A stretch of DNA of 64,000 nt from NCBI GenBank assembly GCA_000004985.1, contig GG738854.1. One strand, 5' to 3'. The position numbers were made by a program, and so were the translations under genes. Positions 1,555 to 64,000 of the stretch are shown piece by piece; within the stretch, counting starts at the first letter, position 1; every line of letters starts with the position of its first letter. The notes under the pieces were generated by a model. The model saw only the letters and a list, made by a program, of their open reading frames with translations, did no database searches and had not been told where the DNA came from. Source of the DNA: Naegleria gruberi (Eukaryota).

Positions 1555-4500
1555 ATGGAGCCATCACTATCAGAAAACACAACTACAAGTGACATTTCTG
1601 ATGTTTCCACTACAAATCATGACAATAACAACAATAATTCAACAATAACAACATCTTTATCAGAAAGCCAAGTTGATACTAGCACTACTAGTACTACATT
1701 GAATACTTCTTCCGAGGATCCATCATCAAGTAATGATCAAAATATTAATCCATCGAAAAGTACTACCACAACATCAGACGAAACCACATCATCTACTACC
1801 ACTGCTTCCACTACTACAGATGGCTCAGATGGATCAACCAATAATGTAGAGGATCCTACTTCTTCCATATCTTCAGATTCCCAGAAACAACTCATAAGAA
1901 GTGCAAGTATCAATAGACCAAGAAAGGCCCTTCCTCGACCAAGTCATCATGCTCCTTCTCACAGTTCTATTGATTTTAGTTTTGAAAGTTCGACCATTCA
2001 ACAGGCTTTGGAGAAGAATTCACCTTTTGTTATTGATTCTCATGCATCACCAAATACAAATGTTCAAATAACAGCCACCTCTGATAGTCCTACTGCAACC
2101 ACCACAACATTAACATCATCAGCATCAGGTAATCATTTAACCTCCTCCAATATGACGACCACCACTCAACAACGAAGAATGAGCCACAAGAGATCATCCT
2201 CCGATGTATCTGGACTCTTTGGTAATTCTGCTCTTGTCTCCAACTCTACTACAGCATCAGCTACTGTTTCACCAGTAACTCCCGAAAAACACGACTCTTC
2301 AGCTCCAAGAAAAAAGTTTACACTCTTTGGATTTTCATTTGGTGGTAAGAGTTCGTCCAATCTTCACTCGATGGCTCCAACCATACCTTCCAATAGTACA
2401 ACACCAACATTAGCAAGCTCTCCGATTACATCTTCGTCGACCAATAATTTACCAATAACACCAGTCGCTGAGAGAGGACTCTCCTCATTGACTTCAACAA
2501 CAACAAATACAACAATTGATCAATGTGTAACTCCAACATCATCTTCACTATCATCTGAGGATTCATCAGAAATTATGAGAAAAAAGAGAGCCTCTGATGA
2601 TGTTTCACACGAAGTGTTGAAATATTTAAGTGATAAACCACCAAATCGTGTAACTACTACAAATTCAAGTAGTGATGAGGAAACAATGAAAAAGAGACAA
2701 GCCATGCACATGTCCCAACCTATTGGAACCTTAGGAATACCAGAGGATTCAAATGTTGCTGGAGAAAGAGGTTCTAGGCGAGAAATTGATTTGATAAATT
2801 TCCTTGGTGAAATGAATTTAAATCAATCTCATGGAGCATTTGATGATAACAATTCAACAGGAAGAAGCGTACTCGATGATATTAGAGTAGCAACAACACC
2901 CGAATCTAGAGAACAAACAACATATGGATTTAAATCCTTTTTGGACAAGGTAAAAAACAAGGCAATTTTTGCAAGAGGAGTTGGAAGTCCAGCAGAGGAA
3001 GCAACAACACCAAGCTCTCTCTCTACAACAGATGCAAGAACAGAGGATGATGCCAAATCTGACACTACAACCACTACTTCCAAGACACCTAAGAAATTAT
3101 CGGAGAAGGAATTGAGAAAAATCAAATTAATGCAAAGAGAAGCAAATCAAAAAGAAATGATGGATGGAATTTTGGATAAAATCAGCAAGAATGGAGAATC
3201 ATTTGCCCATCTAACATTCTTTGATGAAAATGATCAAGAATGGCAATACATTGGATACATTCAAAAGTATGATTCATCCATGACTGATGATGAATTGTAC
3301 ATGATGTATGCCTTGCTCGGAGTTGGAGGTGCAGAAGAAGGAACTACACCAAAAGCTAAGGAAAAGGACGTCAAGGATTTCACAGGTGGAATTTTTGGAG
3401 ATGCCTGTGTTTGTCCAGTTCTCTCAAGACTATGTGGTAGAGGTGAATTGAAATATCCAAATGGTGCTGTCTATGAAGGTGATATTATTAGAGGAAAGAG
3501 ACACGGTTTTGGTAAAATGATTTTCCCATACAAGAATACCTTACCACCTCCAACTGGTAAAAAGGCCAACAATACTGAGCAAGCACCACCAACAGCCATT
3601 GCTATTGGTCAATGGATTTTGAATAACCCTAGTGAAGCCATTCCTTTCAAGGTCACCTACTCTAATGAGCTTGAATATTGGGGAACTTTCAGAGCTAAAA
3701 GCAAGTTTAATTCTGCCTATGTAATTTCGGTTGGAGATTTGGAAAAACACAAGGAAGGTGAATTGTATCACGTTCAGGAAAATAAGAAATACTTTGGTGG
3801 ATTTTCTGAAGATCTGAAAGATGGTTTTGGAGTGGAAGTAATGGGTAATGGTGAAAGATATTATGGTGGCTGGAAGAATGGTTTATATCATCATATGGGA
3901 ACTTATCAATATATTGATGGTTCATATTTCCAAGGAGAATTCAAGAGAGGTACTAGAAAAGGAAAAGGTAAACTTTACCTTGCCACAGGTGACGTTATTG
4001 AAGGAACTTGGAGTGGAGACAAGATTGAAAGTGCTGTTTTCAAGAAGGGAAATTGTAAAAATGTAGAACTTACCCATCTTTTCCAATTGAGAACGCAAGT
4101 GAATGATGCAATCAAACTTTTCCAAAATGTTGGTCATATGGATGATAGCAATTATCTCCAATTTTTGAGAATGACCAAGAAGGAATGCATTGAAAGACCA
4201 GAATTGGAATTAAAGTGGAAATACTACTCTCTCATGAGTAAGGAAACTTGGAGAAAGGAAAAGACAAATCTTTTAGAATACTACTCCAAGAATGGAGACA
4301 AGTGTAATTTATTGGATAAGGTCGTTTTCAAGAATGAAGTCATCAAATTGTTGGGCGAGACTATCAAGACAGAATATATCTCACCACAAGCAAGCTTTGT
4401 CAAGGGATTTATTGAATTCTTCGATGGCCTCTATCATGGAAGCTACTATGCCGGTAATAATAGAAATCAATCATCTGGTGCACGTAAAGTTGCCAGAAAA

Positions 4501-6024
4501 GACGGTGTTCTCCTCTACAATGCCATTGATGACTTGAAGAGTTTTATCATCTTTTTGTGTGATCAAGTGGTTTGGGAATTTTTCGGTAATGAAATTATTT
4601 CAGCCAAGTTAGGAAGTATGGGTGGATCAGATAACAACTTGGACCAACAAGATGGACAATACGATGACTATGATGATGAAATCATTTTTGGAACTTCTGT
4701 ACCTGCCACTACTGATATTACTAAGAGTCATTTCATAACCGTTCAACAAGCTTACAACTTTTGTAAGACCATTATTGCCGATCACTTGCACAAGAAACTC
4801 TACTCTACAACATTTGAATTGTACGAATATCATTTCAGAGATCAAGATTTAATGATCAATCAAAAGATTAATTCCATCTTGACCACATGTAGCTTGCAAA
4901 ACTTTGGTGTTCACTCTGATTTTATTCCAAAAGATACTTCAGTTAAACCTTATAATGAATGTATTCAATTGATGAAGGAAATTAAATTTTCCAACTCTGT
5001 CGAATCCAAGATTCGTGTCTTATCCAAATTGAGAACACTTGTTATGCAATCCATGAGAAAAGTCAAAGTTGAAAGCAAACAGTTAAAGAAACGTTTATCT
5101 GGCGAATTTGATTATGAAAATGTGGAAAGTGATGACTGGCAACCAGGTGCAGATGATGTAACTTCTCTCTACACTTACTCTTTCATCAAGACCAATATTG
5201 GAAATTATACAGCTTTATTTAATTATGTGAATGATTGGAAATCACCACATACTAGCTTAAAGCCAGTCTCCCATGTTATTTCATTCTTTGAAGGATTCCT
5301 TGCCTACATTATGGACTTGGATCCAAATCTTACTGTAAAACAAAGCGAGTTGGGTGAAAGTATGGGAGATGCTTCAGAGGATAGTTATGTATACATTTCA
5401 AAATATGGTCTGACTAAGCAATTAGAACGAGCTATTGAATTGGCGATCTTTAGAAATCAAAGTAAGAAGGAAAAGATTGAACGTCAAATGCAAAAACCAA
5501 ACTTGGAGCCAGAAGAAATGAAGGACCTTACACATCAACAAAAAGAATTGCAATTGATCAGCTTTTCATGGGTTTCACCTCTCCTTTTATTCGTTTCCTT
5601 ACAGGTCGGTCACATTCAGCTTCAAGTAAACAAGAAAGCTGAGACTACACAATCAGAAACATCTAAAGCTCTATCTATTGAGGTTGTAGAAACAACTCAT
5701 CAAAATATGATTGTTCCAATGGTTGACGGAAGTGGAAATATGCTCAATTTAGCCCAAGCTCTCATGAAGTATCATCCCTTGGTCCAGAGCGTTCTCGATT
5801 CTGCCAAACTTGGATTTAATATTGCTTTGAAATCGGATAAGAAGGAAGGAGTGCAATCTACAACAACAACTGATGAGAAAGCCCAACATCATCAAGATAG
5901 AATTGTTATAGAGTTTGATAAGGAACCATTCCCAAGTTATGTCTATAGTGAGCTTTCTCTTGAAATTGCCAAATTCATCAAATTTGAACTAGAAAATTCT
6001 GACAGTCTTCAATACAAGATTTAA
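1555..6024 (+). CDS. MORN-repeat + VPS9-domain protein (ALS2CL/alsin-like putative Rab5-family GEF) with a ~400-aa Ser/Thr-rich N-terminal region
   Basis: 1489-aa uninterrupted ORF. Central MORN repeats of the Y-x-G-x-W-x-x-G-x-x-H-G-x-G type (YEGDIIRGKRHGFGKMIF; YFGGFSEDLKDGFGVEV; YYGGWKNGLYHHMGTYQYIDGSYFQGEFKRGTRKGKGKLY). C-terminal VPS9 core motif GADDVTSLYTYSFIKTNIGNYTALFNYVNDW, compared with GADDFLPVLIYVLIKANP in Rabex-5/alsin. The first ~400 aa are S/T/N low complexity. Confidence 0.65.
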   Translation: MEPSLSENTTTSDISDVSTTNHDNNNNNSTITTSLSESQVDTSTTSTTLNTSSEDPSSSNDQNINPSKSTTTTSDETTSSTTTASTTTDGSDGSTNNVEDPTSSISSDSQKQLIRSASINRPRKALPRPSHHAPSHSSIDFSFESSTIQQALEKNSPFVIDSHASPNTNVQITATSDSPTATTTTLTSSASGNHLTSSNMTTTTQQRRMSHKRSSSDVSGLFGNSALVSNSTTASATVSPVTPEKHDSSAPRKKFTLFGFSFGGKSSSNLHSMAPTIPSNSTTPTLASSPITSSSTNNLPITPVAERGLSSLTSTTTNTTIDQCVTPTSSSLSSEDSSEIMRKKRASDDVSHEVLKYLSDKPPNRVTTTNSSSDEETMKKRQAMHMSQPIGTLGIPEDSNVAGERGSRREIDLINFLGEMNLNQSHGAFDDNNSTGRSVLDDIRVATTPESREQTTYGFKSFLDKVKNKAIFARGVGSPAEEATTPSSLSTTDARTEDDAKSDTTTTTSKTPKKLSEKELRKIKLMQREANQKEMMDGILDKISKNGESFAHLTFFDENDQEWQYIGYIQKYDSSMTDDELYMMYALLGVGGAEEGTTPKAKEKDVKDFTGGIFGDACVCPVLSRLCGRGELKYPNGAVYEGDIIRGKRHGFGKMIFPYKNTLPPPTGKKANNTEQAPPTAIAIGQWILNNPSEAIPFKVTYSNELEYWGTFRAKSKFNSAYVISVGDLEKHKEGELYHVQENKKYFGGFSEDLKDGFGVEVMGNGERYYGGWKNGLYHHMGTYQYIDGSYFQGEFKRGTRKGKGKLYLATGDVIEGTWSGDKIESAVFKKGNCKNVELTHLFQLRTQVNDAIKLFQNVGHMDDSNYLQFLRMTKKECIERPELELKWKYYSLMSKETWRKEKTNLLEYYSKNGDKCNLLDKVVFKNEVIKLLGETIKTEYISPQASFVKGFIEFFDGLYHGSYYAGNNRNQSSGARKVARKDGVLLYNAIDDLKSFIIFLCDQVVWEFFGNEIISAKLGSMGGSDNNLDQQDGQYDDYDDEIIFGTSVPATTDITKSHFITVQQAYNFCKTIIADHLHKKLYSTTFELYEYHFRDQDLMINQKINSILTTCSLQNFGVHSDFIPKDTSVKPYNECIQLMKEIKFSNSVESKIRVLSKLRTLVMQSMRKVKVESKQLKKRLSGEFDYENVESDDWQPGADDVTSLYTYSFIKTNIGNYTALFNYVNDWKSPHTSLKPVSHVISFFEGFLAYIMDLDPNLTVKQSELGESMGDASEDSYVYISKYGLTKQLERAIELAIFRNQSKKEKIERQMQKPNLEPEEMKDLTHQQKELQLISFSWVSPLLLFVSLQVGHIQLQVNKKAETTQSETSKALSIEVVETTHQNMIVPMVDGSGNMLNLAQALMKYHPLVQSVLDSAKLGFNIALKSDKKEGVQSTTTTDEKAQHHQDRIVIEFDKEPFPSYVYSELSLEIAKFIKFELENSDSLQYKI

Positions 6025-6056
6025 ACTTTTTCACATAATTATTTTGTAATATTTAT

Positions 6057-8540
6057 TTAAATATCGAGAGGAAGAGCCCTCACATCTCCAACATTTGTAA
6101 ATGCAGCATACGAGCAATCAAACGAAGAATAATAACTCGATAAGATTATAGGTATCGAATTCTCCTCCATCTTTGAAATATTCAAACATGGTTGCAAGAT
6201 TGAAATCAATCTCTCCGTTGTTATATCCTCTGGATGCCTCACTAAATAATTTTGGAAAACTCCCAATACGTGATCAATCTCCTTTTTGATTTCAGATTGT
6301 GAAATTCCATTCCAGAAATCAGCAGAAAAGACATCAAATGCCTTGTAATACTCTGCAAATGCATTGTTCTTCTTTGAATTTTCCAATTCATAAAGCCATT
6401 CATCATTGTCGGTATTCTTTTCACCAAAAACTTCATAAATTGTTTCAATACTTGAATTATTCATTTCCTTCTTAATCTTGTCAATTGGTTTCAAAATGAA
6501 TTTTCTGGCAATATCTGCTTGTAAACTTTCACAACAAGATGTATCAATTAGCACATTTACATTGAATGAATCTGCCAATATGCACAATTTTTCAGAGTCA
6601 ACCACACATGCACCAACAATCGTATAGTACCTTGAAGTTTTAGTTCCCAAGTTTCCAACCCTAGCTTTCGAACAACTGACACCAATTCTAGGGTAGAAAT
6701 CAGGTCCAACCTGATTGATAGCCTTTGCAAGTTTGAAAGCCAGCTCAACACTCTTTTCAATCAGCTTATCTTGCTCTCCTGGAGAATTAGCCGAAAGTGC
6801 CAATTGTAAAGCAAACTTTGGAAGAACTTGCAAATTAGCTTTGTATACTTTTGTAATCGGTCCAATAGCATTCATAATCTTTTTAAAACCATTCTCAATA
6901 TCACTTGGCTGTTCCATTGAGAAGAAACCCTTCAATTGACAAGTGATTACAACAGTTTGCTTGACAGATAATCCCATTTGGAATAGTGAGCCACCTCCCT
7001 TCTTGGAAGAATGAATTCTCGATTCCAAATCTGCGTGGCTAACTCCATCATTAGTTGTGCCCATGGAATGTTTCGATTCAGCAAAGGATTCATTCTTCTT
7101 GATATTGACAGATCCAAATTCCATCTCAATTGTTTGTGAGTTGATTAATTGTTCAAAAACGTGTTCTGGGATGAAAGATTTAATTTCCTTCAGCCATTGA
7201 ACAGTTGTTTTCAAATTTCCAAAAATGGAATTAATTTCCTTGAAAACTGAATTACCAATATTGACAGTGTCAAGATCAAGGACCTTAATAAGCTCAAATT
7301 GACGTTCTAAAGCTTTCATTGGTTTGGAAACTATAAATCCAATGATAAAACTGACAATGACACCAATAATCATGACAGTGACAGCCACACCAACACTAAT
7401 GCCAGTTGTCATTGTCAAGGATGCAATCACTTCTTCTTGATAAACAACGAAATAGACATTCCATTTCAAATTATCAATCTTGTAAGTGTAATGAGATATG
7501 ATATAACCTATTCCATTAACTGTTTCAGTAATTCTTTTTGGTAATTCATTCAAATCACCATATTTTACACTAATTTCTTTCATTAATTGCCCAGCATCTC
7601 TTTCTGTCAAATTATAAATATGTAAATTAGTATTTCCGTCAGGTGTCAAAGTATTAATTGACCCACCAACTAGAATTCCATTTTGCTGAGAAACCAAACA
7701 AAACCCTTTACCAATCAACACAATCTTACTCAAGAAATCAACAATATTCTGCAGTGAAATGTTTACTCTTGTCACTCCTGTCACCACTTTCTTACCTGTC
7801 TTGTACTGAACTGGATCATACAACTTTGAGGAGTGATAAATGGCCATACTTGATCCATAAGGTTTATAAGCATTGCCATAAACACCTTCAATGCCCAATT
7901 GAGTAGATAATATTATGGTCGAATTGTAATAATCTTGATCTAGGGTATAAAACGGAGTTAAATCCACAGTTGAGTTATATTTGGTTACAACTCCAGTTGT
8001 TACATTTATGGTATCACGCAAAGTTCCGATAAATCCAGGAGGTTGATAGGAATAAACTGGATAGGTTTTGTTTCCAGAACCTGCAGTAGAATAGGTGTAT
8101 TTAGTAGAAGGAGGACCAGCAAAGAAATATCCGCAACTAGAAGTTTTGAATTCTGCAAATTTGGGAAACAGATAAGTTCTAAAATTGGAAGTAGTAGCAA
8201 TTCCATTGTTGTAATCATAGGCAATGGATTTGGAGAGTTTTCCAAGGGGATCCATAAAGGTATTGAGATAGGAAGTGATTTTTTCTCCATTGACATCTAT
8301 CAAGTCATTTGACAGACCCTCAATCACTTGCTTTGTTACAGTGAATGAAGCAATCCAGATACAAAAGCAACTCATGATAAGAAGTATGGATACTACAGAA
8401 ATGATAAATAGATTAATTGGAATTCTTCCACCACACACTCGATAGAAAGTTGAAACATTTTCTTCAGGATTTTTTGAAGTGTCGTTTGACATTACTTCTT
8501 CCATGTCATCGTGGGTTACAGGGACAATTACTTGGACCAT
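6057..8540 (-). CDS. Receptor-type membrane protein: extracellular sensor domain, TM, HAMP-like linker, degenerate class III nucleotidyl-cyclase homology domain (likely pseudo-cyclase)
   Basis: 827 aa. N-terminal TM (LFIISVVSILLIMSCFCIWIASF), ~330-aa extracellular region, second TM (ISVGVAVTVMIIGVIVSFIIGFIVS). The cyclase-like core is …VVITCQLKGFFSM…RIGVSCSKARVGNLGTKTSRYYTIVGACVVDSEKLCILADSFNVNVLID… It aligns to the canonical LFADIVGFT…RIGIHTGPVVAGVIG…WGDTVNxASRMES, but the metal-binding Asp residues and the Asn/Arg of the NxxxR motif are substituted. Confidence 0.55.
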   Translation of the reverse strand: MVQVIVPVTHDDMEEVMSNDTSKNPEENVSTFYRVCGGRIPINLFIISVVSILLIMSCFCIWIASFTVTKQVIEGLSNDLIDVNGEKITSYLNTFMDPLGKLSKSIAYDYNNGIATTSNFRTYLFPKFAEFKTSSCGYFFAGPPSTKYTYSTAGSGNKTYPVYSYQPPGFIGTLRDTINVTTGVVTKYNSTVDLTPFYTLDQDYYNSTIILSTQLGIEGVYGNAYKPYGSSMAIYHSSKLYDPVQYKTGKKVVTGVTRVNISLQNIVDFLSKIVLIGKGFCLVSQQNGILVGGSINTLTPDGNTNLHIYNLTERDAGQLMKEISVKYGDLNELPKRITETVNGIGYIISHYTYKIDNLKWNVYFVVYQEEVIASLTMTTGISVGVAVTVMIIGVIVSFIIGFIVSKPMKALERQFELIKVLDLDTVNIGNSVFKEINSIFGNLKTTVQWLKEIKSFIPEHVFEQLINSQTIEMEFGSVNIKKNESFAESKHSMGTTNDGVSHADLESRIHSSKKGGGSLFQMGLSVKQTVVITCQLKGFFSMEQPSDIENGFKKIMNAIGPITKVYKANLQVLPKFALQLALSANSPGEQDKLIEKSVELAFKLAKAINQVGPDFYPRIGVSCSKARVGNLGTKTSRYYTIVGACVVDSEKLCILADSFNVNVLIDTSCCESLQADIARKFILKPIDKIKKEMNNSSIETIYEVFGEKNTDNDEWLYELENSKKNNAFAEYYKAFDVFSADFWNGISQSEIKKEIDHVLGVFQNYLVRHPEDITTERLISILQPCLNISKMEENSIPIILSSYYSSFDCSYAAFTNVGDVRALPLDI

Positions 8541-58427: not shown

Positions 58428-61314
58428 TTATACATTTTCTACAACTGTTATTTCCTTCTTTTCGTGGAACTCTTTTGGTACATTAAACAATGAAATTACA
58501 GTTTCCAAATTTTTGCAATAGTCCAAAATTTTCTCTGAACCTGCCATGGAACTATCCAAATAAGATAATTGAGAAAAATGTAAGAATTTCAAGTTTGGGA
58601 AATAATTAAATGCTGAATAATCAATGAATGACATGCCTCCTGATGTAATTGTTAAATGGGTAAGATTTGGAAGAGCACTGGTATTCACACATCCAGAGAG
58701 TTGGCCAATATAACTTGTACAGTGAATTGGAATGTAGGTGCCAAACTTTTTCTTGTAGGATGATCTGTATTGGAGTTCAATTCTTGTCAGTAGGGGCCTT
58801 TTATCACATCCCTTTAAAAATTTGGTGCCGTTTTGTGGCTTTAAGCTGCTAATGTTGCACAATGACAATGATTTCATATTTGGATAATTGGTAGGGTCAG
58901 AAAGGGAATCAAAATACTCAGTATCATAGCTGGTGTCTTGAATTCTCAGAGATTCCAAACTAGTACTATCCTTGAAAATAGAGTTCAGTAGATTTACAAC
59001 ATCCACAGAGCAATTAATAATTTCTAATGTCTTGTAGTTATGTACATTTTGTCTATAAATATTCATCTTGGCTGCTGATATTGTTTGATTACTTTTCCAA
59101 TTTGTTATTGTCAATCGTTGAATTTCAGTCTTAGTATTGAACAATTCAAAATAGCTGACAGATATGGTAAGAGTCTTGATTTGCTTTGTCAATAGAGTTC
59201 TAAAACTATCTCCTTGATTAATTGAGGAGAGAGAGTTGACATAGGCTTTGTCAATAAGTGGACATTCCAAATCTACAATATTTTTCACCCTGTCTAGTAT
59301 TGTTCCATCTGCCACAAAGTTTGGTCCTTGTATACTCAACATTTGAATATCACGTTCCAATGTAAAGTTTGTCAACTGGTTGCTCTTAATGTAGACTGAA
59401 TCAGATCCTCCTTTCAATCCAGGTCCTAATCTCAAGTCATACAAGTTTGGACACTTGATAGTAATAGAATTATAGGTTAAAAGACAGATATTTTCCAGAG
59501 TTGAGGACTCAATTGTAACTTGCTTGTTGTGGTTTGAGGAATTGTTATAAACTAGGAGAGTTTTCAAATTGGGTAATCTTATAAGATTGATATGGGAAAG
59601 AACTTGTTCAGTAGTGTGTAATTCTTCAATATTTACAAGGAGAGGGAAAATTTTGGCATTCTTTTCTGTAATCTTTCCAATTTTTAATTTACGAATAGTT
59701 GACGGGAATTGAATAAGGTCTGACTCGTTTAGTGTTTCCATTTCTAATTCAATCAAATTCTTGAATCTATTAAGTTCAGAAACAATGGTACAACCCTTCC
59801 TATATGATGCTGAATCCACTAACTTTAAAGATTTGATATTTTCCAAATTGGCAACCACTGGTAGCATTTCATCAAAGAAAACCGAGTAGGTAACACAAAG
59901 TTTTGTCACTATTTTGGGTCAGCACATTTCTTTCAAATAAGAACTTACACTTTTTAGATTTGAAACAATATGTCATGTCTTCAGTTTCTTTCATTCTCAA
60001 TAGGAGAGATAGATCCAATCTCTTTAGATTTTCAAATTCGGGCAATTTAGATTCATCAACTTTCAAAATGACCAACTCCTCAATGCTTGCAGGATCTTCA
60101 AATTCAACATGCTTGTCGAAAAGTTTTGCAATATTAGTACCAGTCGGAATGGTTTTCTTGCTTGAAGATCTAATGTCGAGGAATCCCCAAAGTGAGATGA
60201 ACTCTGGTTCAAATATTGACTTGTTGATTTTAGGGAAAACCTGTGCAATGTCAGAGTCATTGGTTTCAATACTTGAATCATCCCAAGCAACTCTATATTT
60301 GGCATCTCTGTATTTGGCATTTGGAAAGACAACACCACTCGAGGCAAACCATTTAATTAGCCTTTGAGGAATGTCCCAAACTGTATAAATATTTTCCAAT
60401 CTCCAAGAAATGTACTTCTTATAAATTTCCACAAAATGCAATACTGAGTAGTCTGCATCAAAATCCAAATTAAAACAGCTCAGAGCACATGGATGCGAGC
60501 TAGCAGTGTGCCATGTTTTGCAAACTTGAGAAGCTTTAAGAAAATCAGAAAAGTCTAAAAAGGAGAAAACAGTAGACCAAATCTCTGGCAATTGAACAGT
60601 GTTCAATAATCCATACTCACTCATATCATGATTCTTTCCACGGAATAGTAATAACTCTGCTGATTTGCACAGATCACCCAATTTTGCAACCTTGTTTTGC
60701 AAATGTTTCAAGATTGTTATAATGCCTTGACGTTCTGCTGATGGAAGGCTTGGATAATTTAATTCCACAGAATCAAGAAAAGCAATTGATTCCTTTACGT
60801 GATTAACAGCTTGCATCGTAAATTCATTATCAAATTTGATTGAATCCAAGGATACTTCAACCTCCTCTTCTTTTACATCCATCATATCATACTGTTCTGT
60901 ATTTTCATCAAGTGGTGTTGATTTATCATTGGCCTCCTCCTCTTCATCAGTTTTATCCTTCTTCTTTGATTTCTTTTTCTTTGGTTCTTCAGCTTCTTCC
61001 TCCTCAACATTTGATGACGATGATGCAGAAGACTTCTTATTCTTCTTCTTTGGCTTTTCCGAATCATCATTCTTTTTCTTTCTCTTCCTCTTGGTCTTTT
61101 CCTTATAATCAGAATCATCCTCCACTTCAATCACCACTCTATCATCCTCCTCTACTTCTTCCTCTTGCTTACGTTCCTCCTCCTCGTGATCATCAGATGA
61201 ATCTGCTTTTGTCTTGGCCTTTTTACGTCTTGCTGTTCGTGGTGGCATTTTTTTTAAAATAAAATCACAAGAACCATAACAATCGAAATGTAAAACGAAA
61301 AGCAGCGTTCTCAA
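58428..61314 (-). CDS. F-box / leucine-rich-repeat protein with highly charged (Lys/Glu-rich) N-terminal extension, 2 exons
   Basis: ORFs 59872..61314 and 58428..59909 join via a 40-nt intron (minus strand GTAAGT…AAAATAG, + coordinates about 59909..59948), giving …MTYCFKSKK|L|TKLCVTYSVFFDEM… in frame. F-box: LPEIWSTVFSFLDFSDFLKASQVCKTWHTAS. The C-terminal half is LRR-like (LxxLxLxxN periodicity; NLKTLLVYNNS, LENICLLTYNS, LYDLRLGPG…). Confidence 0.65.
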
Positions 61315-61549
61315 GCATCACGTTTTACATGAATTCCTAATTAATGATGATAAAATTCTCACCACACAACCTGAAGCTATGTGAAGCAAAAACCAACAAG
61401 GCAAAGCTGGCTGATCGATTCAAAGAATCTAGTGAAGATTGACTTTTGGTGTTGACGTGAATGGAGAATGACAGGGAATTTTGCTTGAACGTGATGTATA
61501 AATAATTTACAATGTGAAAAATCATTACAAATGATTGAATGATAAATTA

Positions 61550-62332
61550 TTATTGATAGTAAATGTGATGGTTCCTCATAAAATTTTCCACATCTGAACA
61601 AACAAGATCTTGAATGGATTCTCCTTGTTTAGCTCTCTTTCGAACGAGTGTTGAACTACATTCCTCCTGCATAGTTGTTTCAATATGATAAATATCCTTC
61701 TCCCCTTTTCCTATATTACTCAATTGAGAATGTGATGGTCTCTGTAAAATTCCAACTCCAATTTGCAATTTTTTAGGGAATGACAATACATATCTACACT
61801 TGTTAATATGATCAGAACCACACAAGTAAATCAACTTGATTGGGGTTTGAGGAAATTCCTGCTTGATAAACTCATTCAAAGATATAGAGACTTCTGGGAA
61901 ATCAACAAATCCATCACACTCAACTGATTCCCATGCATCAACACTCAAAAAAGGACTCACATCCAAATGTTCCTTCTCAGCTTGTTCAATAGAAATCTCA
62001 CATAATTTCAATCGAGTTTCTGTCTCTATAAAATCCTCTTGTAATTTACTGGCAACATAACTCTTATGTGAAGGTGATATAAACGCTCCTACAACATGAA
62101 TTCCATATTGTTCCTCGAGAGCCTTTTTACACAAGTAGAATGTCTCAATGTGCATCCTATGAACTGGACAATAACTCCCCGTACTCAATATAATGGCCAT
62201 CTGTGTTTTATTCCAATCTCTACCATCATCATTTTGCTGTTGTTTTTTAAATTTTTGTATATTTTGTTTGACTTTATCGAGTGGAGTTGTCTTGTTATTC
62301 CTATCCGGATTCCTATGAAGAAACATGATCAA
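61550..62332 (-). CDS. NMNAT: Nicotinamide/nicotinate mononucleotide adenylyltransferase (NMNAT)
   Basis: 260 aa. AIILSTGSYCPVHRMHIETF matches the nucleotidyltransferase (H/T)xGH-type motif (GSFNPITNMH in human NMNAT1). ISPSHKSY and …WESVECDGFVDFPEV parallel the NMNAT blocks ISPVGDAYKK and DTWESLQ. Confidence 0.7.
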   Translation of the reverse strand: MIMFLHRNPDRNNKTTPLDKVKQNIQKFKKQQQNDDGRDWNKTQMAIILSTGSYCPVHRMHIETFYLCKKALEEQYGIHVVGAFISPSHKSYVASKLQEDFIETETRLKLCEISIEQAEKEHLDVSPFLSVDAWESVECDGFVDFPEVSISLNEFIKQEFPQTPIKLIYLCGSDHINKCRYVLSFPKKLQIGVGILQRPSHSQLSNIGKGEKDIYHIETTMQEECSSTLVRKRAKQGESIQDLVCSDVENFMRNHHIYYQ

Positions 62333-62485
62333 GTAAATTCAATTAATTTTTTTCTTGTTTGTTGTTACTGAGAACTCTCTTGAAGGATGAACCAATATTG
62401 TAATAGTAGATTGTTGCCACAAAATTCAGAAAAAAAAAAAGATACGTTGTCGCCGCCACATCATCGCATACAAACGATCAATTAA

Positions 62486-64000
62486 TTGGTGCCAAAATTA
62501 CATCATCACACCTTTTGTAAATTAAATAGTTTTTGTCGTCATCAAATTATTCATCATAAAATGCAACGTGTCTCTCCGAATATTAATCTTCATAATGAAA
62601 TTTGGGATAACACTACAACAAAAGACATTCCACAAATATTGAAAAATACATCTCCATCACCAAAGTTTTGGAGAAGAGAGGATATTCTGGTTCCCAATAC
62701 AAAAATTCAGGTAAAAAAGGAAATTGAGACAATTCATTTGTTGGAAGAGGAAGAATTTGATTCAACAGAAAGAGAGGAAGAGGAAGAGTATGAAACGGAG
62801 GAAATTGTGAATCATGATAGGTGTATCCTATTGAAAAATATTTTAAGTGAAGAAGAGTGCGAGAATTTGGTTTCAGTTACTGAAAAATTAGGGTATAATT
62901 CTATTGAACATGAATATGTGAAAGAGTATCGTAATAGTGAGAGAGTTGTAGTGACTAGTAAGAAGCTTGCCAATATCATTTGGGAAAGAATGATGTAAGT
63001 TATCAGATCAGCAATTTATTTTACAATTTCATCACACAACAGCCCACATTTGAAAAAGTCTGATTTCAATGGTGTAAAACCTTATGGTTTCGACAATAAG
63101 GGAAGATGGATTCCAATAGGGCTAAACAGCTGTCACAGATTTAACAAATATTCTGAGAAAACCTTCTTCAAACCCCACATGGATGCTCAACATTGTAATA
63201 ATGATAATGAGAGAAGTATTTTCACTGTATTGATTTATCTCAATCACTCTCTATATGGAACTAGATTATTGAAAAAGGTTCCAAATCCCAACTCAAATGA
63301 TGACCCCTCTGTTATGAGTTTCCAAGAGTTGCAATATGTACAACCAAGAATAGGTAATATTTTAATATTCAATCATGACCTCTATCACAGTGGAGATTCA
63401 GTTCGATATGGTAGCAAGTATATTATTAGAACAGAAATGATTTTCAAAAGAGTTGACTCTGAGAGTATTCACAGAATGGACTATAGAAACACTGAAGAAT
63501 TTTTGAAAGTTAAACAACTTGTTGACGAATCCACAGAATTGGAAAAACAAGGAATGGTCAGAGAATCAACTTTGAAATATTTGAAAGCTCACCAGGCCCA
63601 AGTTGATTTATCACACTCTCTCAGATCGGATAATACTGAAAAACATTATAGCTTTATAGAACAAGAACTTCCAGAAGAAATATTTGCTCATATTTTCAAA
63701 TACCTTCCTGTGACTGACGTTGTAAAGAGCGTGTTTTATTTGAACAGGGATATCAATGAGTATGCAAGAAATGCACAATTGTGGAAAGAATTATATCAAC
63801 AAAAATGGCCTTCAAAGTTGACTGTTAATAACGTTGTTGCATATAAGTATAACTATAATTATTCCAAATCTGAAAATGTCCCACCAAACTATATAGATGT
63901 GGAGAGTGCTGAAAACCAAGCTATTGCAAATATTGAATCAGAGAGAACCAGTATTTTTGGTGAGACGCTCAAAGATTGGTATCAAACTTTTATTTGCAGA
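62486..64000 (+). CDS. Prolyl-4-hydroxylase-like 2OG-Fe(II) oxygenase with C-terminal F-box-like motif; 2+ exons, 3' partial (runs off window)
   Basis: Exon 1 62486..62994 and exon 2 63043..>64000. Intron 62995..63042 (GTAAGT…CAACAG) joins …IIWERM|IPHLKKSDFNG… in frame. No stop occurs before the window end. Fe/2OG motifs: HMDAQH (HxD), LYHSGDSV (distal His), KYIIRTEMIF (Arg). N-terminal P4H-type region …RCILLKNILSEEECENLVSV… Further C-terminal: LPEEIFAHIFKYLPVTDVVKSVFYLNRDINEYARNAQLWKELY (F-box consensus LPxEIxxxIFxxL…W). Confidence 0.65.

Follow-up and report, generated by a model that had tools for sequence, protein, structure and literature searches.

Several described proteins join an oxygen- or iron-dependent domain to an F-box. 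KDM2A and KDM2B (FBXL11 and FBXL10) combine an F-box with a JmjC demethylase, and FBXL5 combines an F-box with a hemerythrin domain. Oxygen sensing in protists is now understood mainly through two systems: the action of PhyA on Skp1; and the JmjC protein JcdI. Dictyostelium JcdI (Fbxo13) carries a JmjC domain and an F-box, binds Skp1 directly via this F-box, and is O2-dependent (PMC9485057). Fusions of JMJD6 to an F-box were already pointed out in 2010 (PMC2938197). Here, a gene on the plus strand at the end of a 64,000-nucleotide stretch of Naegleria gruberi DNA (contig GG738854.1 of assembly GCA_000004985.1; the whole stretch is termed the window) joins an F-box to a dioxygenase of the prolyl 4-hydroxylase (P4H) type. 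As judged from a near-identical metagenome contig, the same protein continues beyond the window into an actin-like domain.

The interpretation that we consider fairly probable is that the product is a Skp1-tethered hydroxylase, which would act as, or within, a substrate receptor of a Skp1-cullin-F-box (SCF) ubiquitin ligase. In this proposal, the parts of the protein would be: an N-terminal Fe(II)/2-oxoglutarate dioxygenase of the P4H type; a rigid helical hairpin; a canonical F-box; and a degenerate actin fold. A preliminary description of positions 62486-64000, made from the sequence by itself, treated an oxygenase that can dock onto Skp1 as a striking coupling of oxygen sensing to SCF. Such an arrangement has precedents in JcdI/Fbxo13 (PMC9485057), in KDM2A/B, with structures in the PDB, and in the JMJD6 fusions (PMC2938197).

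Gene structure and reading frame

The DNA surrounding the gene is eukaryotic and AT-rich, with 35% G+C. Position 62486 is a TTG and represents only the mechanical start of the open reading frame (ORF); the earliest ATG of this frame lies at 62561. Exon 1 (62561-62994, plus strand, as for all features of this gene) encodes amino acids 1-144 and two bases of codon 145, and contains the N-terminal region together with the first third of the oxygenase domain. Intron 1 (62995-63042) is a phase 2 intron of 48 nucleotides that reads GTAAGT...CAG and contains one in-frame TAA. Exon 2 (63043-64000) remains open past the end of the window and encodes amino acids 145-464: the oxygenase core; the helical linker; the F-box; and the lead-in to the actin-like domain. 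Within the window, the spliced product is a partial protein of 464 amino acids, with an exon 2 frame that is uninterrupted to 64000.

Three observations support the splice: alignments to homologues contain no gap at the exon junction; intron 1 has the same sequence in the metagenome contig L001, which also contains a second, similar intron; and TAA is employed as a stop by this gene (in L001) and by a neighbor. At the junction, the window protein reads ANIIWERM followed by IPHLKKSDFNGVKPYGF, as compared to ADLLWRRIKPHINEDDLKGVRPYGF in N. lovaniensis and ADIIWSRIVPFLKKSDIDGVKPYGF in the homologue P0006. Together with the GT-AG ends, this bears out the 48-nucleotide intron that had been proposed from the sequence. 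Upstream of the junction, alignment shows the exon 1 frame to be homologous to the N-termini of P0002, P0006, P0009, P0010, and P0012. A conserved N-terminal motif, KFWRREDILVPNTKIQ (62663-62710, amino acids 35-50), has no assigned function and is also found in P0006, N. fowleri P0009, N. lovaniensis P0010, and Willaertia P0012 (KFWRRKDILVPG...). Its retention in these relatives supports the coding status of exon 1.

The best database match of the gene, P0001, is located on L001, a 6.2-kb contig that is 98.6% identical to window positions 61491-64000. In L001 the frame passes the second intron (49 nucleotides, GTAAGT...CAG) and ends at a TAA, which gives a product of 844 amino acids. The overlap of 2.5 kb contains 22 mismatches and 8 gaps, most of them outside the coding sequence, where 3 of 1392 bases differ. 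This reflects constraint on the coding sequence in this lineage, and we count it in favor of a functional tethered hydroxylase. The predicted continuation of the gene past the window is confirmed by the intact ORF in L001. No stop or frameshift closely follows the position equivalent to 64000, a result that is seen in the 98.6%-identical contig and not in this genome itself.

These data bear on whether the locus could be an artefact or relic, i.e. a chance F-box, a dead pseudoenzyme, or a mis-joined or decaying locus. In a variant of this explanation, the TAA would be read as a sense codon and there would be no intron. As the variant would require, the 48 nucleotides of the intron are divisible by three and contain just one in-frame TAA, and the F-box of the single sequence scores marginally, with PF00646 under its cut-off. 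Against this stand the strong significance of the F-box at the level of the family, the invariance of the catalytic residues, and the ORF that is intact to 844 amino acids in L001 with so few coding differences. The sense-codon variant is ruled out: no homologue has a 16-residue insertion at the intron site; and TAA serves as the stop of both the gene itself (in L001) and its neighbor, which excludes a ciliate-type code here. In addition, the oxygenase core (HxD motif at 63176-63184) and the F-box (63665-63799) lie within the single unbroken exon 2, making the fusion independent of the intron call. The artefact explanation is already largely refuted, and we regard it as extremely improbable. 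The gene is real, and the observation of an oxygenase joined to an F-box is confirmed.

The oxygenase domain

The P4H-type 2-oxoglutarate/Fe(II) oxygenase domain (62816-63463, amino acids 86-285) spans intron 1. PF13640 (2OG-FeII_Oxy_3) matches amino acids 178-273 with 34.1 bits, above the cut-off of 27. The iron-binding HxD motif, H190-M-D192 (63176-63184), can be read directly from the sequence, and H260 (63386-63388) aligns with the distal iron-binding histidine of solved P4Hs. Ten residues after H260 is K270 (63416-63418), which is predicted to bind the C5-carboxylate of 2-oxoglutarate.

The identity of this last residue differs from the HxD...H...R motif of the preliminary description, which had correctly recognized the P4H-type oxygenase, the HxD, and the distal histidine. 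The invariant K270 pairs with the 2-oxoglutarate-binding lysine of the collagen-type P4H from Bacillus anthracis, in the segment VTKGEKWI. The motif is consequently HxD...H...K, and R274 is a neighboring conserved arginine. PHD2 uses Arg383 to bind 2-oxoglutarate, in contrast to Lys270 here.

Across 59 relatives with 20-45% identity and a 26-sequence alignment of the domain, H190, D192, H260, and K270 are invariant, and R274 is nearly so. In a larger set of 80 sequences, H260 and K270 are again invariant, and conservation of the HxD residues is 90% or higher. No other positions of the protein are as conserved as the catalytic residues. That the His, Asp, His, and Lys side chains are invariant at such low overall identity argues for an active enzyme, and the oxygenase is apparently catalytically competent.

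A profile of the domain was compared with solved structures. The strongest matches are: B. anthracis P4H (3itq/5hv0; E 8.5e-11); Chlamydomonas P4H-1 (2jig; E 3.5e-8); P4H-TM (6tp5; E 1e-4); and the collagen P4H of PBCV-1 (vCPH, 5c5t; E 2e-4). Weaker matches are to P3H1, to vaccinia C10, and to Pseudomonas PPHD (4iw3; E 0.075). No PHD2 or PhyA chain is retrieved at E<=10. Comparison with the PhyA-type Skp1 hydroxylases, which the preliminary description had recommended, places the closest relatives outside the PHD/EGLN/PhyA group, of which PPHD is the sole representative among the matches. By sequence, the oxygenase is nearest to the collagen-type P4Hs, and the sequence evidence argues against membership in the PhyA group.

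The fold was evaluated in a model of the exon 2 protein (window 63044-64000) that was built from an 80-sequence alignment. This replaced an earlier model of a full-length N. lovaniensis homologue, which was based on a 9-sequence alignment and was unusable, with a predicted local distance difference test (pLDDT) score of 41. The exon 2 model contains the double-stranded beta-helix of the oxygenase fold. Fold scores are 11.1 for an uncharacterised bacterial protein, 10.7 for Dictyostelium PhyA, 10.3 for a viral P4H, 10.0 for an algal P4H, 9.2 for OGFOD1, 9.0 for the lysyl hydroxylase LH3, and 8.6 for PHD2. These values place the domain within the P4H/PHD group and do not pick a subfamily.

Taken together, the profile and fold comparisons address the proposal that the protein is a PhyA-like Skp1 prolyl hydroxylase, with an F-box that docks on its own substrate such that Skp1 is hydroxylated in cis. 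We find this very unlikely. The oxygenase profile identifies collagen-type, bacterial, algal, and viral P4Hs (8.5e-11 to 2e-4), with PHD2 and PhyA absent; the 2-oxoglutarate binder is a lysine, as in collagen-type P4Hs; and the fold score to PhyA is effectively no better than that to the viral or algal enzyme. The presence of at least seven paralogues in N. lovaniensis is ill-suited to a single housekeeping modifier, and hydroxylation of Skp1 in cis would leave the conserved C-terminal actin-like domain without a role.

Two viral similarities of the oxygenase were also observed. The closest viral structural match to the exon 2 model is a 333-amino-acid Fe2OG dioxygenase of the giant virus Yasminevirus (E 3.9e-15, 29% identity over 198 columns), which suggests that this oxygenase module has been exchanged between amoebae and their giant viruses. 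Separately, weak matches to the poxvirus C4/C10 family are seen in 15 of the 59 members.

The linker and the F-box

The oxygenase is followed by a conserved helical hairpin (63494-63610, amino acids 296-334) with the consensus Y..A..LY..S..LE..GD....T..YL.A..LQ. In the AlphaFold model, the two linker helices span residues 151-168 and 172-189 (exon 2 numbering), with pLDDT values mostly of 94-98. The hairpin is also found in stand-alone relatives, for example P0008.

The F-box (63665-63799, amino acids 353-397; ELPEEIFAHIFKYLPVTDVVKSVFYLNRDINEYARNAQLWKELYQ) extends from LPEEIF to LWKELY. It begins about 84 amino acids after the catalytic lysine and is a real F-box, much as had been described at a distance of about 90 residues. 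Predicted helices at 211-218, 223-230, 235-241, and 244-254 (exon 2 numbering) have pLDDT values of 87-95 in the AlphaFold model, which is a prediction only. Residues L354-P355, I358, I362-F363, L366, and L391-W392 of the F-box pattern are all present in the window protein.

Scored on the window protein, PF12937 (F-box-like) gives 25.0 bits, marginally above its cut-off of 24.3, and PF00646 (F-box) gives 14.9 bits, below its cut-off of 20.5. The isoleucine at the mid-box tryptophan position, which is W or F in most relatives, explains the marginal score. Among the 59 relatives, PF12937 is found in 47 (best E 3.8e-15) and PF00646 in 38 (best E 4.9e-12). The search for profile significance that had been proposed for this motif is accordingly positive for PF12937 and negative for PF00646 on the window protein, and positive for both at the level of the family. 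In 80 sequences, the family pattern is LP..I..IF..L....V.[KR].W......LW, with V-[NSC]-[RK]-x-[WF] at mid-box. The column counts for L, P, I, and L are 49, 57, 59, and 58 of 79 sequences, and the final W is present in 80 of 80.

When a profile of the 53-column F-box segment is compared with solved structures, it retrieves F-box domains almost exclusively. FBXL5 is the best match (2.6e-14), followed by FBXL2 (1e-11), KDM2B (5.6e-11), KDM2A (8e-11), and Skp2 (5.7e-10); FBXW7 and Cdc4 are also retrieved. Many of these structures were solved with Skp1. On these profile comparisons the F-box can be regarded as established, and from it we strongly infer Skp1 binding.

The actin-like domain

The third domain lay outside the view of the preliminary description, which was restricted to the window. 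A conserved DWYQTFICR motif (63971-64000), with a tryptophan that is invariant or nearly so in the family, leads into this domain just beyond the window. In the L001 product, the additional C-terminal 380 amino acids match PF00022 (Actin) from amino acid 473, with 62.9 bits against a cut-off of 27. The domain also matches solved actins and chains of the actin-related protein (Arp) Arp1 with E values of ~5e-6.

Residues of the nucleotide site were compared by alignment to beta-actin. Only D11, G13, G156, G301-G302, and G342 are retained. At the remaining positions (S14, G15, Q137, D154, D157, H161, K213/E214, and K336), the actin residue has been substituted or deleted and the family shows no conservation, making ATP hydrolysis and actin-like polymerisation unlikely. 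The domain is probably a protein-binding pseudo-actin, as opposed to an ATPase or a polymer subunit. Its location C-terminal to the F-box is the usual place of the WD40 or leucine-rich repeat (LRR) substrate domains of F-box proteins.

Distribution of the family

An exhaustive profile search identifies 240 proteins at E<=1e-30 and 2108 at E<=1e-10. Every one of the 59 long relatives contains PF13640, with PF12937 in 47/59, PF00646 in 38/59, and PF00022 in 36/59. The order of domains is constant: the oxygenase; a linker of 72-81 amino acids; the F-box; and then, usually, the actin-like domain. Coordinates for this order and spacing were checked in Tieghemostelium, Polysphondylium, Cavenderia, Dictyostelium cf. 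discoideum, Physarum, Stenamoeba, Pyxidicula, the centrohelid Pterocystis, and two chytrid fungi. A few members replace or add domains, among them ankyrin repeats, NADAR, FYVE, and Macro.

Relatives are also present in Willaertia and N. fowleri, and N. lovaniensis has at least seven paralogues. In N. gruberi, a homologue, P0004, and a second protein, P0159, were identified. The window protein is about equidistant from all Naegleria and Willaertia copies, at 47-54% identity. A fragment of the family occurs in the foraminifer Reticulomyxa. This distribution indicates that the family is old and widespread in Heterolobosea, many Amoebozoa, chytrids, and a centrohelid, and is not a one-off fusion.

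For members with a retrieved source name, this name is "hypothetical", "predicted", or "uncharacterized", or is automatic, such as "F-box domain-containing protein" and "Fe2OG dioxygenase domain-containing protein". A search of the available literature library for the architecture and the accessions, which included the Dictyostelium actinome paper, Skp1-interactome papers, and a supplement, found no mention of the family.

Two public gene models look incomplete. The N. gruberi model P0004 begins exactly at the start of exon 2 (MKKEDIANVKPYGF), as if exon 1 had been missed. The N. fowleri model P0009 (FDP41_008733) omits a portion of the linker together with the N-terminal half of the F-box, such that ELEKQGK runs directly into DVVKNILYLNRDIN; the missing half explains why P0009 has no F-box match. 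A divergent member of 802 amino acids, P0071, is encoded at positions 10001-12409 of L003 (Tara Oceans contig NODE_45, 115.7 kb, marine), and its oxygenase and F-box matches are both under the Pfam cut-offs. The genes of L003 are intronless and closely spaced; some encode ankyrin-repeat proteins, and many of the ORFs have no match. The contig thus has the appearance of a giant virus or of a genome that is very compact.

Neighboring genes

Immediately upstream and divergent is a gene for a protein of 258 amino acids (61553-62326, minus strand). PF01467 (cytidylyltransferase-like) matches this protein with 19.7 bits, just under the cut-off of 21, and by eye the product resembles a nicotinamide-mononucleotide adenylyltransferase. 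Two genes upstream (59875-61248, minus strand) lies another F-box protein, with 33.1 bits for PF12937 and 29.6 bits for PF00646 at amino acids 220-253 (LPEIWSTVFSFLDF...). Its N-terminal half is rich in Lys and Glu and is both very acidic and very basic, and the protein has no further recognised domain.

Downstream of the gene in L001 are a low-complexity protein of 480 amino acids that is rich in Asn, Gln, and Ser (3966-5408) and a protein of 180 amino acids with a weak START-domain match (5532-6074). Although the window has an upstream ORF that is also 480 amino acids long, the former is unrelated to it.

Proposed mechanism

In the mechanism we propose, the protein most likely binds Skp1 through the F-box, and would thereby belong to an SCF-type ubiquitin ligase or to a different Skp1-containing complex. 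The actin-like domain lies where F-box proteins have their partner- or substrate-binding module, and the hydroxylase would modify either the bound target or a component of the ligase, in a reaction that depends on O2 and 2-oxoglutarate. Hydroxylation could in this way be linked to ubiquitination.

Several points weigh against this assignment. Unlike in typical substrate receptors, the F-box lies in the middle of the protein and is preceded by a large enzyme domain. The F-box of the window protein itself scores only marginally above the cut-off (25.0 against 24.3 bits), that of the L001 copy scores 24.1 bits, and the usual tryptophan of the "[CK][KR]xW" position is an isoleucine. The model used for the fold comparison begins after the first ~60 oxygenase residues, which are encoded in exon 1, and the actin-like domain and full length are deduced from the 98.6%-identical contig L001 as opposed to the window. 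Skp1 binding and activity are, for members of this family, read from sequence. Finally, the F-box of JcdI is dispensable for the O2-related phenotype and may mainly control the level of the enzyme itself (PMC9485057). By analogy, "substrate receptor" may place the emphasis wrongly.

The example of JcdI leads to an alternative in which the enzyme comes first. Here, the protein would primarily be a hydroxylase of cytoskeletal or other targets that are recruited by the actin-like domain, and the F-box would only regulate the stability, solubility, or abundance of the enzyme itself via Skp1/SCF, with no delivery of substrates for ubiquitination. The F-box of JcdI mediates Skp1 binding; in E. coli, JcdI depends on Skp1 to remain soluble, and its level drops when Skp1 is modified. 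The O2 phenotype of JcdI requires catalysis and not the F-box (PMC9485057). That conservation in the present family peaks at the catalytic residues is also consistent with this explanation. However, the F-box and its fixed spacing from the enzyme are kept across very distant lineages, and a large domain fills the classical substrate-receptor position C-terminal to the F-box. We treat the enzyme-first explanation as rather unlikely, and retain the Skp1-tethered hydroxylase as the preferred assignment.

A more extensive version of the tethered hydroxylase, which we hold to be unlikely in its full form, is that the family provides a second, PhyA-independent input of O2 or 2-oxoglutarate sensing into SCF ligases. 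Such a receptor would carry its own hydroxylase, its pseudo-actin would engage cytoskeletal or Arp partners, and hydroxylation would gate ubiquitination. The family would date from early eukaryotes, with retention chiefly in lineages of amoeboid habit (Heterolobosea, Amoebozoa, chytrids, centrohelids, and Rhizaria).

If the tethered hydroxylase is correct, its wiring would be different from that of PhyA and JcdI: the enzyme itself would be part of the ligase and would mark substrates or ligase subunits on site. Through this family, ubiquitin ligases may be coupled to the sensing of oxygen or metabolites, and the presence of an actin fold suggests a previously undescribed cytoskeletal connection. 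As members are present in a strain labelled Dictyostelium cf. discoideum and in the pathogen N. fowleri, the idea is directly testable with existing genetics and Skp1-interactome methods.

Comparison with known systems

The actin-like domain resembles Arps and other divergent actin-fold proteins in its PF00022 match and in the signature glycines and D11 that it keeps. It differs from them in the loss of nucleotide-binding and catalytic residues. An Arp that carries either an F-box or an oxygenase domain is not known to us. None is mentioned in the Dictyostelium actinome paper (PMC2441452).

The Skp1 prolyl 4-hydroxylase PhyA of Dictyostelium and Toxoplasma, which belongs to the PHD/EGLN clade, has no sequence-profile match to the oxygenase described here. 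Moreover, the protein here is multi-domain and multi-copy. KDM2A/B and FBXL5 share with it an oxygen- or iron-dependent domain, and their F-boxes are among the top matches of the family profile. In contrast, these are animal proteins with LRR substrate domains and other sensing or catalytic folds, and the homology is confined to the F-box.

The best functional analogue is JcdI. Like the present family, JcdI and JcdH (JmjD6-like) place an Fe(II)/2-oxoglutarate dioxygenase and an F-box in one polypeptide, and both families are protist-wide. The dioxygenase is of the JmjC type there and of the P4H type (PF13640) here; Pfam scans of the window protein, the L001 product, and the 59 relatives identified no JmjC family. 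The F-box of JcdI is near the N-terminus, ahead of the enzyme, whereas it follows the enzyme here, and JcdI is without the actin-like domain that the present family usually has. Dioxygenase F-box proteins are known from the JmjC branch, and the joining of a P4H-type enzyme, an F-box, and an actin fold is a different combination.

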